Below are positions 50,478 through 57,318 of a stretch of DNA of 63,653 bases, one piece after another. Numbering within the stretch: the stretch's first letter is position 1; each line of letters opens with the position of its first letter. Below the pieces are notes generated by a model that saw only the letters and a program-made list of their open reading frames with translations, made no database searches and was not told where the DNA came from. The stretch lies in NCBI GenBank assembly GCA_017452475.1, contig JAFTMJ010000003.1, forward strand, positions 1-63,653, in the 5' to 3' direction. Made by a program: the position numbers and the translations under genes. Source of the DNA: Clostridia bacterium. GTDB lineage: Bacteria; Bacillota; Clostridia; Oscillospirales; CAG-272.

Positions 50478-51308
50478 ATGACAAAAAAGAGCTTTATGCA
50501 AAAGGCGGCCGCTGCCCCCCACGTTGTTTGGGCGGTGCTGTTCATAATAGCTCCCTTGATATTTGTTGTTTATTATGCCTTTACCGACAAGGACGGTGCA
50601 TTTACCTTTAGCAATATTACCGAGCTTATGCAGGCAAGCTACCTTGAAATCTTTTTAAGGAGCCTTTGCTTCGCCTTCTTAGCAACGGTTATTTGCTTGA
50701 TTATTGCATATCCAATTGCGTATTTTATGGCTAAGGCAAAGCCAAAAACCCAAAAAATACTTATAATGCTTGTTATGCTGCCACAGTGGCTCAACTTCCT
50801 AATCCGCACCTATTCTTGGATGGCGCTTTTGGAGGACACAGGCATTATCAACTCTATTTTGGGTGTTTTCGGCATCGACCCCATACATATGATAAACACA
50901 TCGGGAGCCGTTATTTTGGGTATGGTATATAACTACCTGCCTTATATGATTATTCCACTTCATTCCGTTATAAGCAAGATCGACCCTAAGCTCTTAGAGG
51001 CGGCGGCTGACCTTGGCTGTAGCCCCTTAAAGGTTATAACAAAGGTGGTTTTGCCACTTAGCGTTTCGGGCATTATTTCGGGTGTAACAATGGTGTTCGT
51101 TCCGTCAATCAGTACCTTCTACATTTCACAAAAGCTTGGCGGAGGTAACTTTGACCTAATCGGTGATACCATTGAAAGGCAGTTCCAAACCGCCTACAAC
51201 TATAACCTCGGTGCCGCTATGTCCTTTGTGCTTATGCTGATTATTATTGTCAGCATGGCAATAATGAACAGGTACTCAGGTGAGGATGACGGGGGTGTTA
51301 TAGTATGA
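50478..51308 (+). CDS. potB: Spermidine/putrescine ABC permease
   Basis: LIRTYSW, YNYLPYMI, EAAADLG. Confidence 0.92.
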   Translation: MTKKSFMQKAAAAPHVVWAVLFIIAPLIFVVYYAFTDKDGAFTFSNITELMQASYLEIFLRSLCFAFLATVICLIIAYPIAYFMAKAKPKTQKILIMLVMLPQWLNFLIRTYSWMALLEDTGIINSILGVFGIDPIHMINTSGAVILGMVYNYLPYMIIPLHSVISKIDPKLLEAAADLGCSPLKVITKVVLPLSVSGIISGVTMVFVPSISTFYISQKLGGGNFDLIGDTIERQFQTAYNYNLGAAMSFVLMLIIIVSMAIMNRYSGEDDGGVIV

Positions 51309-53443
51309 AAAAGAGTAAAATCTTCGGTAACATCTATACCGTCCTTGCATTCATCTTTCTGTATATGCCAATTGCGGTTTTGGTAATTTTCTCCTTTAAC
51401 GCATCTGACAGTACAGGAAATATTACAGGCTTTTCACTTAAGTGGTACGGTGAGCTTTTTAGCGATGCCGCCACACTAAACGCACTTAAAAACACGCTTA
51501 TCCTTGCAATTTTGTCCTCCATAATTGCCACCGTTATCGGTACAATGGCATCCTACGGTATTAACAAAATGCAAAATAAGCACATAAAGAGTGCAACTAT
51601 GTCAGTTACAAAAATACCTATGATAAACCCTGAAATCGTTGTAGGTATTTCAATGATGCTTTTGTTCGTGTTCGTTGGCGGCATTGTGGGCTCACAGTCA
51701 AGCCTTGGCTTTGGCACTGTTTTGATTGCCCACATCACCTTCAATTTGCCTTATGTTATACTTTCCGTTTTGCCTAAGTTTAAGCAAATGGACAAGTCAT
51801 TGCCTGAGGCGGCGCAGGACTTAGGCTGTACCCCCCTTCAGTCATTTTTCAAGGTTGAGCTGCCTGCTATTTTGCCGGGTGTTGTTTCGGGCTTGATTAT
51901 GGCATTTACCTTATCCCTTGACGACTTTGTTATAAGCTATTTCACAATAGGCAGCGGCTTTGAAACCTTACCTATCAGAATTTACTCAATGACAAAGAAG
52001 CGCGTTACTCCCGATATGTACGCCCTGTCAACACTTATCTTTGTGTCTATCCTTGTTCTTTTACTCATCTCCAACCTTACCTCTGACAAGAGCAGAGAAA
52101 AGATGTCCAAAAAGGCAAAGAAGATAACCAAAATAGTTGTTGGCTCCCTCTTTGGTGTGATTGCGGCTGTTACAATCGTAGTGTTTATCGTTTCCGCCTC
52201 CACAGAAACCCTTACCCTTAATGTATATAACTGGGGTGAGTATATTTCCGACGGCGGTGAGGACACCCTGGATGTTAACCAAAAATTCGAGGAGTATTAT
52301 GAGGATTGGTACTTCAAAAAGTATAATAAGCGCGTTAAGGTTAACGTAAATTACACAACCTATGCAAGCAACGAGGATTTGTACGCAAAAATCAAAAGCG
52401 GCGCGGCGGATTACGATATTATCGTTCCCTCCGACTATATGGTTGAGCGACTTAAGTCCGAAGGACTTTTGCAGACTATTGACTTAAGCAAAATCCCCAA
52501 CTATGAAAATATTTCGGAGCAGTTTAGAAACCCCTATTACGATAACGGAAAAGAGAAGTACTCCGTTATGTATACCTACGGTATTGTCGGTATTGTCTAT
52601 AACAAGGACAAGATAAATGATGATGACCTTGCTAAAATCGAGGCAGGTGAGGCAGGCTGGGAGCTTCTTTGGGATGAGGACTACAAGGGTCAAATCCTTC
52701 AGTTCAATAACGCCCGTGACGCCTTCGGCGTTGCTATGTACTCTCTCGGTATTGATGTGAACAACGCAACCGATGCTGAGTGGCAAAAGGCATACGAAAG
52801 GCTTAAGGAGCAAAAGCCATTAGTGCAGAGCTATGTTATGGACGAGATATTTAATAAAATGGAGGGTGGCGAGGCTGCCTTGGCGGCATACTACGCAGGC
52901 GACTGCCTTTCTATGATAGAAAGGGCGGCGGAGGCAGGCGTTAACCTTGGCTTCTACTATCCCAAAACCAACGGTAAATATGTCACCAACATTTTTGCAG
53001 ATGCAATGTGCATTCCAAAGAGCGCCACAAATGTGGAGCTTGCCCACGCGTATATTAACTATATGCTTAGTGAGGAGCCTGCGGTTGCAAATGCGGAATA
53101 CCTGTATTACGGCTCACCAAACAAGCTTGTTGTGAACAACGGGGACTATATTGATTACCTTGGAGATGACTACGGTGTTATATACCAAGAGGAATTTGAG
53201 TCCCAGCTTGATTATATGTTTGAAACCTATGCATACAGGAGCTTGCCCGATGAAAAGCTAAAGCTTCAAAACAACCTATGGGAAACACTTAAGGTTGGCT
53301 CTGATTCCTTCGACAGCGGTATTTATGTCATCTGCGGTGTTATTGCCGCAGTGCTTATCGGCTTTGGCGTATATTGCTACATTATTAAGCGTAAGCGCAG
53401 AAGACTGTATTGGAATACGCAAAAGGAAGCAAGCAAAAAATAA
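51305..53443 (+). CDS. potC: Fusion of PotC permease and PotD binding protein with extra C-terminal TM
   Basis: FLYMPI, AHITF, EAAQDLG, TLSLDDF; then LNVYNWGEYI, SNEDLY, YDIIVPSDY; final TM followed by KRKRRR. Confidence 0.9.
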   Translation: MKKSKIFGNIYTVLAFIFLYMPIAVLVIFSFNASDSTGNITGFSLKWYGELFSDAATLNALKNTLILAILSSIIATVIGTMASYGINKMQNKHIKSATMSVTKIPMINPEIVVGISMMLLFVFVGGIVGSQSSLGFGTVLIAHITFNLPYVILSVLPKFKQMDKSLPEAAQDLGCTPLQSFFKVELPAILPGVVSGLIMAFTLSLDDFVISYFTIGSGFETLPIRIYSMTKKRVTPDMYALSTLIFVSILVLLLISNLTSDKSREKMSKKAKKITKIVVGSLFGVIAAVTIVVFIVSASTETLTLNVYNWGEYISDGGEDTLDVNQKFEEYYEDWYFKKYNKRVKVNVNYTTYASNEDLYAKIKSGAADYDIIVPSDYMVERLKSEGLLQTIDLSKIPNYENISEQFRNPYYDNGKEKYSVMYTYGIVGIVYNKDKINDDDLAKIEAGEAGWELLWDEDYKGQILQFNNARDAFGVAMYSLGIDVNNATDAEWQKAYERLKEQKPLVQSYVMDEIFNKMEGGEAALAAYYAGDCLSMIERAAEAGVNLGFYYPKTNGKYVTNIFADAMCIPKSATNVELAHAYINYMLSEEPAVANAEYLYYGSPNKLVVNNGDYIDYLGDDYGVIYQEEFESQLDYMFETYAYRSLPDEKLKLQNNLWETLKVGSDSFDSGIYVICGVIAAVLIGFGVYCYIIKRKRRRLYWNTQKEASKK

Positions 53444-53449
53444 TACTTT

Positions 53450-53492
53450 CCCCCAAGCTATCCAAGCGGTAGCTTGGGGCTTTCTTTTTTTA
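53450..53492 (+). terminator. pot operon terminator
   Basis: CCCCAAGCTA-N9-TAGCTTGGGG followed by T-rich tract. Confidence 0.75.
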
Positions 53493-53496
53493 CTTG

Positions 53497-53578
53497 ATTT
53501 CGCTTGAACGAAGGGAGAATAAAACAAATATTTCGCTTGAACGAAAATATAATCTGTTGCAAATTTCGCTTGAACGAA
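53497..53578. repeat. Three identical 16-bp direct repeats at exact 33-bp period
   Basis: ATTTCGCTTGAACGAA at 53497, 53530, 53563; unique 17-bp spacers. Confidence 0.95.
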
Positions 53579-53782
53579 GCGCATAAGCGCCGAAAAATAA
53601 AGCTCTTTCCGCCTTTTGCCTTTACGGCATATACCAAAACCGTAAAAAAAGTACAGATGTATGTAGCCTGATACGTACATCGTTGGTACAAAAAAATATG
53701 GACAAAAAAACCGTTTTGGGGTGGTGTTTTTTCACCGAGATTTCCTGTATAATCTTATCAGTAAGCAAGAAAGGAGAGCCTT

Positions 53783-54097
53783 ATGAAAACGGTAAAGGAT
53801 GGCGATCTTTACAGGGTTGTTGAGCTGTACGGAAAAAGCTTTGAGCTTCGGTACGGCTACTACGAGGAGTACGAAAGGGAAAAATGCGACCCCGTCCCCA
53901 TATATCCCGATTTTAGAAAAAGTCCGGTATATACAAATGAAGGCTTTCCCTTCGTTACCCAAATGCAGGAGCTGTGTCAGCACGGCGAGAGCAGATTTGA
54001 GGATGGGTGCTGTGTAGATTGCAGGTATTTTGAAAACGGGGAAGAGCTGATAGGAATTTGTAAGAGCCCCAAAAACAAAAAGCATATAATGAAATAG
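53783..54097 (+). CDS. Small Cys-rich hypothetical protein
   Basis: 104 aa, AAGGAG RBS, GYYEEYE, PIYPDF, C-x-H...CC-x2-C...C. Confidence 0.8.
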   Translation: MKTVKDGDLYRVVELYGKSFELRYGYYEEYEREKCDPVPIYPDFRKSPVYTNEGFPFVTQMQELCQHGESRFEDGCCVDCRYFENGEELIGICKSPKNKKHIMK

Positions 54098-54121
54098 CAA
54101 AGCGAAATTTAGGAGATTAAT

Positions 54122-57100
54122 ATGGAAAACAGGCTTACAAGAATATTTAAGATAATGGTGGCAATGCTGGCAATTCTTTTGCTCGGCGTAATTGGCGGCT
54201 TCCTTACAACAGTCGGTGCGGAGGAGCTTCCCGAGGGCACCTTAATAGTAGAAACCGAAAACAAAAAAACATACGTTTTCTCTCCTGACGGATATAAAGC
54301 CGAGAATGAGGCGTTCGTGTCCCATACAGGACCGTATCTAATCTACGGTGAGGCAAGCCGTGATATTAGCTTTACCTCAAGCGGCGGTGAGCCCGTAACC
54401 TACGATGTTATATTTCACACATGGACGGCATGGGCGGAAGAATGGTACGGAATTTTTGGTGTTGAAACAGGGGTTACATTAAACATAACCGTGTACGGAA
54501 GCTGTACTTTAAAAGGCTTTAATCATCCGGGAATTTCCGTAGGAGAAAGGCATGTGGGGGCTTCTATGCCTGTTGTTAACTTCACAATCGCGGAGAACAG
54601 CTCCATTACAATTGGAAACCAATATTATGAAACAGAAACGTGTGTTGCAGACGGCGTTGAGATTAGTATAAACGGTGAAGCAACCTCCAGCTTGGACTTG
54701 AGTAGCAGTGATTGGCGCAACAATACAACTCTTGTGCTTTCAAGGGGCGAGAAAACCGGCCACAAAACGGTATATAGCTATGTGGATGATGCAACCTGTA
54801 GAATGACCTGTGATAGCTGTGATTGGGTTGCCAAGGATGTTAATCACCAAATCGAAAACCTTGCCTTGGAGTCCACAGATGAAAATTATGGGCTAAAGCA
54901 TGCGGCAAAATGTGTAATGTGCGGTCATGTTTACTTTGTTGAGAATCACAGTATTAGGTATAATACCAATGAGCAACAGCACATTGCATATTGCAATGAT
55001 TGCAATTACTTCGAGAATTTTACTGACCATACATTTGACAGTACAGGCTGTACTGTGTGCGGCATTACGTACATTGCCGAGCATACAGTTGATGGGGAGG
55101 CAACAAAATATCTTACGATTGATGCATTAACTGAGGTGGTAAAGGAAAAGGGCGGATTAGTTACTCTTCTTAAGAATATAGAAGAACATTACTATGAATT
55201 TGAAGCAGACACAACTAATCTTGTAATCGATTTGGCAGGGTATAAGCTTAGCGGCGTTAATATGGAAGTAGCAGTTGGCGGCTCCATAAAAGTGATAGAT
55301 TCCTCTCAAGCCAAAACAGGAATGCTGATAGGAAGAGGTTATTACAATAATAACATAGAAGGAGAACTCATAATAGATGGCGTAACTTTGGAAAATATCG
55401 CAATTCGTGTACAAAACGGGGGAAGAACTACGCTTTCTAATGCTATACTTAATGACAAATGCATCTTAGTTATGAGTGACGGCTTGTCAATTGTAATTAC
55501 AAATGTTACCTCCAACGGTGAGCTTGAAATTAGTATAAATGCAAGGGAAAATAAAGGAGTAAAAATAGTCAGCGGCGCATTTAAAAAGCTTAAAACTGTA
55601 AATCCGTACGGTCAAAATATATCCGTAAATACGCTTCTTGAAGCGGGTTATGCGTTTGCGGGCGAAAACGGCATTCTTGACGGTTCAAAAGACACCATAA
55701 GCAATGTTACCGCAATAGTTTCCCACGGTGAGCATACTATAGATTCATATCATAACGATGTGGGAACCCACTGGGTAGGCTGCAGCTGCGGATATGCTGA
55801 AGAAAATGTGGAAAAGGAAGCTCACTCAATGAACGAAAGCAACATTTGTCCCGTGTGCAAAGCTGAGATTGAGGCATTGGTTGTTGGCGGTGAAGACGTA
55901 AAATATTTTACAACCGTTAAAGGTGCGGTAGATTATGCAAACACCGTGGCAGTGGCGGAGGTTAGGCTATGCCGTGATGCCACATTTGATCAATTATATA
56001 TTAGAAGCAATATAACCTTGGAGCTTAATAATCATAAATTAACATCAACTGTTGACAGGATATATGTTTACGGCAGGCTTGGGATTATAGATAAGAGTGA
56101 AGGAAAGCAAGGCGGCATCTATGCCAAAAGTGAAGACGGCTATATCATAAATGTTTATGACAAAGCGCAGCTTAGAGTAGTTAACGTAGAAGTGTCAGGA
56201 ATTATTCACTCACCCACCGCTGAGGAAGGAATTTTGATAGAAATTTCAGGTGGCAAATTTACAGGCGCAAATAAATTCAGACTTGGCGATGGCACAAAGC
56301 TGCACATTTCAGGTGGCTTGTTTGAATGTAAAGAGTCGGTAATAGATTTGGGCTGGGGCTCGAGAATTGAGCTTGTAATCACAGGCGGAGAATTTAAAAA
56401 CTGCACTATTCTGGGCAGGTACGATGAAGAAACAAGCTCCTTTGATTTTGACGGAATTTTGAGCAATGTCGGCAATTGTAAAATTTTTATAATCACAGAA
56501 AACGGCACGAGAGTTACATTTGATGACATAACTAAGTACTACGAGGGAACAATGCTCGTAGCACACGAAATGTATGTGTTGAAAAAGGACGAGAAGTGCC
56601 ATTATTATGAATGTACAGAATGTGAAATTATGCTATCAAGCATGCTTGAGCATACCCCGTCATACGCACTGTCACAGGAGGATGCGTCATTGCATACCGC
56701 CGAATGTGCAATATGCAAATTTGATATGGGCACAAGTGAGCATAGCGGCGGCACAGCAACCTGTACAGAGGGCGCGGTGTGTCAGCATTGTAATACCATA
56801 TACAGTGAGCCGCAGGGTCATAAATACGATAATGCCTGCGATGCTGAGTGTAACAATTGTGGAAATACGCGTCAAACAAGCCATAATTATGATAATGCGT
56901 GTGATACCGTGTGTAACAAATGCGGCGCAACACGAAAAGTGAGCCACAAGTATGATAAAGACGGTAAGTGTACAGTGTGCGGCGCCACAGGCGGCAATGC
57001 ACCCGCATCTGAAATCGGTACAGGCGCCATAGTCGGCATTGTTCTTGGCTCGACTGCCGTAGGCGGCGGTATAATATTTGCAATTATCTGGTTCATTTTA

Positions 57101-57127
57101 AGAAGAAAAAAACGCCTCTTGAAATAA
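54122..57127 (+). CDS. Large membrane-anchored surface protein with Cys/His repeats
   Basis: N-terminal signal/TM, about 12 H...CxxC/CxC units, beta-rich blocks, C-terminal TM plus RRKKR; AGGAG RBS. Confidence 0.85.
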   Translation: MENRLTRIFKIMVAMLAILLLGVIGGFLTTVGAEELPEGTLIVETENKKTYVFSPDGYKAENEAFVSHTGPYLIYGEASRDISFTSSGGEPVTYDVIFHTWTAWAEEWYGIFGVETGVTLNITVYGSCTLKGFNHPGISVGERHVGASMPVVNFTIAENSSITIGNQYYETETCVADGVEISINGEATSSLDLSSSDWRNNTTLVLSRGEKTGHKTVYSYVDDATCRMTCDSCDWVAKDVNHQIENLALESTDENYGLKHAAKCVMCGHVYFVENHSIRYNTNEQQHIAYCNDCNYFENFTDHTFDSTGCTVCGITYIAEHTVDGEATKYLTIDALTEVVKEKGGLVTLLKNIEEHYYEFEADTTNLVIDLAGYKLSGVNMEVAVGGSIKVIDSSQAKTGMLIGRGYYNNNIEGELIIDGVTLENIAIRVQNGGRTTLSNAILNDKCILVMSDGLSIVITNVTSNGELEISINARENKGVKIVSGAFKKLKTVNPYGQNISVNTLLEAGYAFAGENGILDGSKDTISNVTAIVSHGEHTIDSYHNDVGTHWVGCSCGYAEENVEKEAHSMNESNICPVCKAEIEALVVGGEDVKYFTTVKGAVDYANTVAVAEVRLCRDATFDQLYIRSNITLELNNHKLTSTVDRIYVYGRLGIIDKSEGKQGGIYAKSEDGYIINVYDKAQLRVVNVEVSGIIHSPTAEEGILIEISGGKFTGANKFRLGDGTKLHISGGLFECKESVIDLGWGSRIELVITGGEFKNCTILGRYDEETSSFDFDGILSNVGNCKIFIITENGTRVTFDDITKYYEGTMLVAHEMYVLKKDEKCHYYECTECEIMLSSMLEHTPSYALSQEDASLHTAECAICKFDMGTSEHSGGTATCTEGAVCQHCNTIYSEPQGHKYDNACDAECNNCGNTRQTSHNYDNACDTVCNKCGATRKVSHKYDKDGKCTVCGATGGNAPASEIGTGAIVGIVLGSTAVGGGIIFAIIWFILRRKKRLLK

Positions 57128-57318
57128 TCAGTTTAATTACTCTCCCTAAATGTCCGTAAGGACAAAAAAGACTGTTGCTTTTATGCGGCAGTCTTTTTTA
57201 TTTTACATTTTTCAAAGCTCCTTGAATTTTTACGAAATTTTTACAATATTATTGAAAAATTGCATAATTAATGATATAATGTAATAAAATAGTGCATTTG
57301 CACAAGAAGGAGGAAATT

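Follow-up and report, generated by a model that had tools for sequence, protein, structure and literature searches.

A conserved regulatory pair with interchangeable surface-protein cargo in gut Clostridia, and a probable regulator-less copy preceded by phased palindromic boxes

Mga, the RofA-like regulators and the EbpR/AtxA class are stand-alone regulators dedicated to surface-protein operons of Gram-positive bacteria. To our knowledge, nothing is known about how the giant, fast-evolving surface proteins of uncultured gut Oscillospirales and other Clostridia are controlled. Here we analysed a stretch of 63,653 nt from a Clostridia bacterium (Oscillospirales, CAG-272; assembly GCA_017452475.1, contig JAFTMJ010000003.1, positions 1 to 63,653 of the forward strand), below called the window. 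It contains, between a pot operon and an NCS2 gene, a cassette made up of an array of phased palindromic boxes, a gene for a small four-cysteine protein and a gene for a large surface protein. This cassette is probably a copy, without its regulator gene, of a conserved module, and the array would then be the operator set of a regulator that is encoded on another contig (C11) of the same genome and acts in trans.

In its complete form the module comprises a promoter with two to four phased putative operator boxes, a predicted regulator of about 405 aa, a four-cysteine protein of about 100 aa and one or two predicted secreted, usually membrane-anchored, surface proteins, and as judged from its homologs it is widespread among gut Oscillospirales-type Clostridia. 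No description of such a module was found in a full-text literature search. By analogy it can be likened both to the dedicated regulators of adhesin operons and to LuxR-type regulators that have sensor domains and multiple phased sites. As with Mga, RofA, EbpR and AtxA, a presumably autoregulated factor lies beside adhesin or surface-protein genes and the cargo varies between strains, but the factor described here has no PRD or Mga-type domain, is instead built from HTH_17 (HTH, helix-turn-helix), tetratricopeptide repeat (TPR)-like and GerE parts, and is accompanied by a four-cysteine protein and phased palindromic operators. The GerE domain and the multiple phased target sites are shared with the LuxR/GerE proteins that have helical-repeat sensors (domain III of MalT, the LAL proteins), whereas the STAND/AAA ATPase module of these proteins is absent, the length is 404 aa and there is a second, N-terminal HTH. 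The modelled middle of the regulator matched MalT domain III weakly (E 0.37, template modelling (TM) score 0.36-0.39), and membership in the MalT/LAL group was rejected given that there is no ATPase domain and that the N-terminus is HTH_17. An N-terminal HTH followed by a TPR-like superhelix in a Firmicutes protein also recalls the RRNPP regulators (Rap, NprR, PlcR, PrgX), and in the model the superhelix weakly resembled those of RapF, RapH and a phage Rap (E 0.04-0.5, TM about 0.3-0.4). The HTH is however HTH_17 and not XRE, an extra GerE domain follows the helical domain, no gene for a secreted pro-peptide is present and the adjacent small protein is predicted to be folded and has no signal peptide, and this membership was therefore rejected as well. 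A partner of about 100 aa encoded nearby is, by analogy, reminiscent of the TraR/TraM pair, but unlike TraM the small protein appears beta-rich, has four cysteines and is not homologous. NarL-type sites are 7-2-7 inverted-repeat operators for dimeric HTH proteins. The boxes described here are likewise short inverted repeats with a 2-bp centre, several per promoter and presumably read by a dimer; they differ in being 6-2-6, in having a fixed spacing of 32-33 bp (or 23-25 bp) and in the likely reader, an HTH of the MerR/excisionase type.

The coordinates of the cassette are given in Table 1. Three 17-bp repeats (ATTTCGCTTGAACGAAG/A) make up the array, with start-to-start distances of 33 and 33 bp and unrelated sequences between the boxes, and each repeat holds a 14-bp near-palindrome, TTCGCT-TG-AACGAA. 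The 15-mer core of the boxes was observed 3 times against 0.16 expected, reached at least three occurrences in 0 of 100 shuffles and, within the 2.1-Mb genome of 94 contigs, occurs in the window array only. Box 2 is followed after 1 nt by TATAAT and, 11 nt further on, by box 3. This geometry (box, 1-2 nt, TATAAT, 11-12 nt, box) is common to the window and the loci L029, L030, L034 and L038. The order pot, array, small gene, large gene was identical in six contigs from independent metagenomes and misassembly was rejected on this ground. An initial annotation, made from the window sequence alone, had described a self-contained unit between two terminators that consists of a phased array, a Cys-rich small protein and a surface protein, and all of these parts, including both terminators with their T-runs, were found in place.

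Table 1. Coordinates of the cassette features in the window.
Feature	Position	Strand	Evidence or remark
potABCD intrinsic terminator, upstream cassette boundary	53451..53492	+	stem of 12 bp (7 G-C pairs) at 53451-53479, then T-run
Operator box 1 (putative), ATTTCGCTTGAACGAAG, core palindrome TTCGCT-TG-AACGAA	53497..53513	.	same motif class as regulator-promoter boxes of relatives
Operator box 2 (putative), ATTTCGCTTGAACGAAA	53530..53546	.	1 nt 5' of TATAAT; near-identical register to the spacer box of relatives' regulator promoters
TATAAT, -10-like, within the array; candidate box-controlled promoter, no good -35	53548..53553	+	sequence
Operator box 3 (putative), ATTTCGCTTGAACGAAG	53563..53579	.	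repeat match
Conserved region before the small gene: TTTTGGGGTGGTG element, -10 TATAAT at 53748-53753	53696..53753	+	alignments of 47 sequences, folds
Small cytoplasmic protein, 104 aa, four invariant Cys, unnamed family	53783..54097	+	homolog alignment
Surface protein, 1001 aa	54122..57127	+	sequence features
Intrinsic terminator, downstream cassette boundary	57164..57199	+	followed by a T-run

A single ortholog of the module regulator is present in this genome, on the minus strand of contig C11 (5043-6257), and shares 88% identity with its counterpart in the closest complete module. Neither a small gene nor a cargo gene lies beside it. In its promoter TTGACA and TATAAT are separated by 18 nt, and the boxes ATTTCGTTTGGGCGAAG and TTTTCGTTTTGACGAAA come next, with a spacing of 32 bp. 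Of the 20 TTCG-N6-CGAA sites of the genome, only these two and those of the window array, with spacings of 33 and 33 bp, form phased pairs. The window boxes are at least as near to the palindrome consensus as the regulator's own. Given that the neighbours of the C11 regulator (an endonuclease/phosphatase-family gene, a rhamnosidase and uronate-pathway genes) also flank complete modules in L029 and in G325, a genome of the same genus, we take C11 to be the ancestral site from which the small gene and the cargo were separated. In their divergence the C11 regulator and the small protein of the window behave as a cognate pair, the unlinked pair falling on the line of the linked pairs (residual +2.0, standard deviation 5.4).

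The same split was found in two other species. The regulator-less cassettes L110 (genome G341) and L082 (genome G342) have the layout of the window cassette: the end of an upstream gene is followed by two boxes (33 bp and about 43 bp apart), by 150-230 nt, by the conserved pre-small-gene region, and then by the small gene and its cargo. The boxes lie about 230-260 nt 5' of the small gene. In both genomes a different contig encodes an orphan regulator that is 67% identical to the C11 protein. In G341 the box of the orphan regulator is TTTCGCAAAAGCGAAA and the cassette boxes are TTTCGCTTTTGCGAAA and TTTCGCATTTGCGAAA; in G342 the regulator box GTTCGCAAAAACGAAC occurs twice and the cassette boxes are GTTCGTTTATACGAAC and GTTCGCTTATGCGAAC, with GTTCG...CGAAC in both regulator and cassette boxes. 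Dyad-symmetric and apparently helically phased sites common to a regulator promoter and its presumed target, as would be expected for an operator array, are present in the window and again in G341 and G342. Since three independent splits have all kept matching boxes, we argue that the boxes work in trans, and the unit seems to be separable into a trans-acting regulator and box-tagged cassettes, a separation that would have happened independently at least three times. The regulator elsewhere in the genome that the initial annotation had postulated thus has a candidate in the C11 ortholog; as a property of the module in general, trans control did not stand, given that the normal module is arranged in cis and that the trans layout is a derived exception.

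Two further observations were made in the regulator's surroundings and elsewhere in this genome. Downstream of the C11 regulator (C11:4650-5040) lie a terminator, GC-rich elements of REP-like type (GTAGGGGAGGGG... / GTAGGGGACGGCGCCCTCGAC...) and a tRNA gene, and similar REP-like elements are found in the spacers between regulator and small gene of L035, L036 and L040, with a duplicated 3' end of the regulator gene inserted in some relatives; such elements may mark places where modules break. Contig C31 (10380-10620) carries an intergenic array of about 8 AGCTAAATT repeats, within which two box-like sites, ATTTCGCTAATGCGAAG and ATTTCGCTATCACGGAG, are spaced by 33 bp. The array is duplicated at C64:2362-2411, where an integrase-like gene is its neighbour. 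The regulator could have a third and weaker target here, or the array may have no connection with it.

The recurrence of the module was surveyed through the small gene using one genome per species, which gave at least 174 encoding stretches, of which 80 were kept and 72 were assessable for the position of the regulator. The regulator was directly upstream on the same strand within 450 nt in 62 of the 72 loci, on the same strand but farther upstream in 6 and divergent in 2, and in 2 loci none was present within 3.5-5.3 kb. An HTH regulator accordingly adjoins the small gene in 70/72 loci, and the trio of regulator, small protein and surface protein was also met in loci reached by other search routes. 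Cargo genes follow 3' of the small gene in most loci and encode proteins of 154-2834 aa with a signal-peptide-like start. When 48 loci were compared with each other (1128 pairs), the regulator and the small protein could be aligned in 100% of the pairs, with median identities of 53% and 50.5%, respectively, and the first downstream surface protein aligned in 19% of the pairs (5% at a coverage of at least 50%). A regulatory pair that always aligns, combined with cargo that rarely does, indicates that the unit consists of a conserved regulatory pair to which interchangeable cargo is attached. The parts therefore do co-occur, in agreement with the earlier proposal of a reusable module with interchangeable surface proteins, and the co-occurring HTH gene which that proposal had called for was found beside the small gene. 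The array had been counted as part of the cassette, which is correct for the window, but in the normal module it belongs to the regulator's own promoter. Paralogous cassettes with mutually exclusive expression had also been envisaged and were rejected for this genome, which has a single small gene and the array motif at one place; other genomes carry 2-3 modules.

The pattern TTCG-N6-CGAA was searched for in the promoters of those regulators that share 70% or more identity with the C11 protein. These promoters carry 2-4 of the palindromes and 40 of 61 spacings were 32-33 bp; in more distant regulator subfamilies the spacing is 23-25 bp. The consensus box is a 14-bp 6-2-6 palindrome, TTCGTT-N2-AACGAA. 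In L034, L038 and L043 a box fills the 17-bp spacer between -35 and -10 exactly (TTGACA-at-box-g-TATAAT) and the next box starts 12 nt after the -10, an arrangement that is degenerate in L029 and L030. Most boxes of complete modules fall in the transcribed leader of the regulator gene. A comparison of the leader with the RNA families of Rfam gave no match. Given the 6-2-6 symmetry, the occurrence of boxes in both orientations within one array and their location partly in untranscribed promoter spacers, the boxes are more readily explained as sites for a dimeric DNA-binding protein than as an RNA element.

A CG-N6-CG core is kept in all subfamilies and the outer bases vary. Outer bases TTCG are found in most loci together with an HTH_17 helix of the type ...PRRVQ..., GTCG or ATCG with ...[AV]HRVQ... 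(L049, L046, L020), TAGCG with ...SQRQVQ... (L104, L051 and four others) and GTGCG with ...SLRYVQ... (L021, L023). By comparison, the GerE recognition helix ISESTVKQTVLRVVQK is common to the C11 regulator and L046/L049 despite different boxes, and the helix LSLSVVKQAVRIVSEK is common to L104 and L054/L058/L060, again despite different boxes. As identical GerE helices go with different boxes and the HTH_17 helix changes with the boxes, it seems to be the HTH_17 head, and not the GerE head, that determines box specificity; it counts against this assignment that it comes from two or three lineage contrasts uncorrected for phylogeny.

The regulator is predicted to combine two DNA-binding heads, HTH_17 and GerE/LuxR, around a TPR-like middle. 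In the C11 protein (404 aa) the N-terminus matches HTH_17 (PF12728, residues 2-40, 31.4 bits against a cut-off of 27), a domain also recorded for the linked regulators of complete modules, and the C-terminus matches GerE (PF00196, residues 349-399, 39.7 bits against a cut-off of 23.5, E 3.8e-10). No ATPase domain was found in Pfam or NCBIfam. An AlphaFold2 model had a predicted local distance difference test (pLDDT) score of 87.8 with residues 77-342 all-helical, and this modelled region showed weak similarity to TPR superhelices (Rap phosphatases, MalT domain III, APC subunits; E 0.01-0.4). The GerE fold resembles the DNA-binding domains of SdiA, QscR and DegU.

The region at 53696-53753, before the small gene, is homologous to the spacer between regulator and small gene of complete modules. 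It contains an invariant TATA(A/C)T, in many lineages preceded by TGC (extended -10), and a GGTRRT element about 35-40 nt upstream of this hexamer, and among the 47 aligned sequences G25, G26, T27, T30 and TATA-T are invariant or nearly so. In 11 of 12 close relatives that were folded, the -10 is part of the 5' arm of a strong hairpin with a T-run after it, and such a promoter within a hairpin is found about 30-90 nt 5' of the small gene in L029, L030, L034, L035, L040, L042-L044 and L064. The hairpin would be a terminator against read-through from the regulator gene, with the small-gene promoter embedded in it. A weaker hairpin upstream of it, with the pairing CCNAAAA/TTTTNGG, showed no more covariation than composition explains, as 73.9% of cells were paired and shuffles reached 72.7%. 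The strong hairpin lacks its 3' arm in the window, L038, L110 and L082, and since the split cassettes are without this arm, box-controlled transcripts could there run into the small gene.

According to the reading that we favour, dimers of the C11 regulator would occupy the three TTCGCT-TG-AACGAA palindromes, all from the same side of the helix, and thereby control transcription that starts at the TATAAT of the array and reads through the small gene into the gene for the surface protein. Repression would be the likeliest action, given that the boxes overlap or follow the core promoter, and a signal perceived by the TPR-like domain would lift it. A wider scheme, which we offer as speculative, is a portable platform for surface-protein expression in which the HTH_17 head binds phased CG-N6-CG palindromes and shuts the regulator's own promoter, the GerE head, which resembles sigma region 4, acts at the GGTRRT/extended -10 promoter, and the four-Cys protein, co-made with the cargo, provides feedback by binding the TPR-like domain in a metal- or redox-sensitive manner; display would then be switch-like and possibly bistable.

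Several observations weigh against control of the cassette through the array. Its TATAAT was not called by a strict sigma-70 promoter scan and has no recognisable -35. Complete modules have no boxes between the regulator and the small gene, and direct box control of the small gene and the cargo would therefore be limited to the split layout. The small gene in the window also keeps its own conserved -10 region 170-250 bp 3' of the boxes, so the array could be dispensable or act at a distance. The trio itself is not strict: in one genome of the same genus (G303, with two further modules) the locus L193 (C8, 9084-10809) has a regulator but no cargo, and its small gene, present as a remnant or in a short form, is directly followed by a gene for the binding protein of an ABC transporter; some distant regulator homologs precede a secreted protein without a small gene.

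The weak array promoter and the separate small-gene promoter could mean that the array is a decaying remnant of the promoter of a deleted regulator gene, in which case the boxes would be functionless and only the small-gene promoter would drive the cassette. Such decay would account for the degenerate -35 beside the array TATAAT, for the conserved -10 region of the small gene, which is as in complete modules, and for about 120 nt (53580-53700) that have no recognisable counterpart. We nevertheless consider it improbable, since the boxes are identical over 16-17 nt with unrelated spacers between them, since they have not drifted further from the consensus than the boxes of the intact regulator promoter and since two independent split genomes retain boxes that match their orphan regulator. 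In addition, a strain variant that is 98.7% identical has 5 single nucleotide polymorphisms (SNPs) in 53490-53585 and 0 in the 51 box bases, which suggests selection on the boxes at roughly P = 0.02, a value that counts for less given that it comes from 5 sites only and from a region picked after the SNPs were seen.

That the repeats act as RNA, in the form of three small leader hairpins, or bind another protein such as a pot- or NCS2-related factor, is still less probable. Each box can form a short TTCG/CGAA stem and, as described above, most boxes of complete modules are transcribed, but the centre of the 6-2-6 palindrome, with 2 nt, leaves too little room for an RNA loop, boxes are found in either orientation and also inside untranscribed -35/-10 spacers, and Rfam gave no match. 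Another protein as the reader is difficult to reconcile with a phased motif that is restricted to the cassette and the regulator gene and with outer box bases that change together with the HTH_17 helix. Surface proteins are typical targets of invertible-promoter switches, and a perfect 10-nt inverted repeat, CTTTTTTTAC (53484-53493) and GTAAAAAAAG (53642-53651), encloses the array with its TATAAT, as it would if the array were an invertible, phase-variable promoter element. We regard this as very unlikely and rejected it, given that the repeat, an A/T run of which the terminator tail forms a part, is probably there by chance, that no recombinase gene is adjacent, that all six independent contigs show one orientation, that the strain variant breaks the repeat at 53493 and that relatives lack such a repeat.

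The small ORF (open reading frame) has a GGAG ribosome-binding site 7 nt upstream and encodes no signal peptide. Its four invariant cysteines are C65, C77, C80 and C93. No match was found in Pfam, NCBIfam, PHROG or a PDB sequence profile, and an AlphaFold2 model (pLDDT 87.1, mostly beta) had no match in PDB or BFVD at E <= 0.001; the protein is thus a confident predicted fold without a known match. Its relatives form about 120 close clusters from uncultured Clostridia, and a profile search gave 211 clusters (50% identity) among 1.84 billion representatives. Identity as a ZAS or CsfB-like inhibitor was rejected, given a single CxxC, no conserved HxxxCxxC and no family or fold match. A few longer homologs were found in metagenomic sequences (P0282, P0160, P0165, P0204, P0237): in two the Cys-rich half forms the end of a secreted protein (leucine-rich repeat or lipoprotein-like), and three have extensions of 110-200 aa without a Pfam match. 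One of the longer homologs merges with the C-terminus of a regulator. These may be real fusions or merged gene calls and were treated as uninformative.

Between the two strains the small gene differs at 0 of 315 nt. Across loci the conservation of the small protein tracks that of the regulator (r = 0.70), which speaks for a regulatory partner of the regulator, a role that we tentatively place first. It would most likely be a metal-binding partner, acting as a feedback or anti-activator component. On the other hand, the small gene has stayed with the cargo in the window, and in relatives it is often closely spaced with the cargo gene or overlaps it, which speaks for a role linked to the cargo. 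A helper in cargo biogenesis, in the form of a cytoplasmic helper in cargo export, is ranked lower and we consider it a doubtful alternative. Locus L193, which is without cargo, and the distant regulators that directly precede cargo argue against a strict tie to either the regulator or the cargo.

The large gene starts 24 nt 3' of the small ORF. Its protein has a signal-like N-terminus, 36 Cys, 30 His and 11 CxxC motifs, mostly flanked by His (H...CxxC...H units); these units are clustered at residues 214-321 and 815-955, with two beta-rich regions between. The C-terminus consists of a membrane helix followed by RRKKRLLK. It has no LPXTG (...GNAPASEIGTGAIVGIVLG...WFILRRKKRLLK), and the sortase-anchored class was rejected as the motif is absent before the membrane helix. 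Scans of Pfam, NCBIfam and PHROG gave no known family, and only about 10 full-length homologs (35-98% identity) were present among 5.8 billion proteins. In the comparison of the two strains the cargo gene was 1.4% different and the flanks 0.6-0.7%; of the codon changes in the cargo gene, 23 are nonsynonymous and 16 synonymous.

The cassette had been described as richer in A-ending codons than its neighbours. This is mildly so for the large gene (A3 0.28 versus 0.18-0.21 in neighbours and 0.221 +/- 0.049 genome-wide, the 88th percentile) but not for the small gene (0.229, ordinary for the genome), and the signal is weak. GC content and third-position composition are inside the genome range and a foreign origin on grounds of composition was rejected. 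Insertion of the cassette between pot and NCS2, also part of the initial annotation, is plausible, but no empty site was found in relatives. The pot operon is present in 37/41 genomes of the genus, NCS2 lies within 1.5 kb 3' of pot in 0/29 relatives checked and the region downstream of pot differs in every relative.

Two features of the flanking sequence may be added. In the window (51305-53443) the PotC permease and a PotD-type solute-binding protein are fused into one protein of 712 aa with an extra C-terminal membrane helix, and the fusion is retained throughout the genus as open frames of about 700-770 aa. A minus-strand ORF at 53276-53680, called as a gene of 134-140 aa in public assemblies, overlaps the 3' end of potCD, the terminator and all three boxes and was taken as almost certainly spurious; the repeated FVQAK in its translation is produced by the three boxes.

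These results define a conserved control unit for surface proteins of gut Clostridia, with a putative two-headed regulator, a phased palindromic operator, a four-Cys family without a known fold and a slot for swappable cargo. It leads to testable predictions as to which protein binds which 14-bp site in which genomes. If these predictions are true, the unit would provide a compact and orthogonal set of regulators and operators from anaerobes, and the surface-protein regulons of these bacteria would become readable from sequence in metagenome-assembled genomes, where the boxes would mark the targets and their outer bases the regulator.

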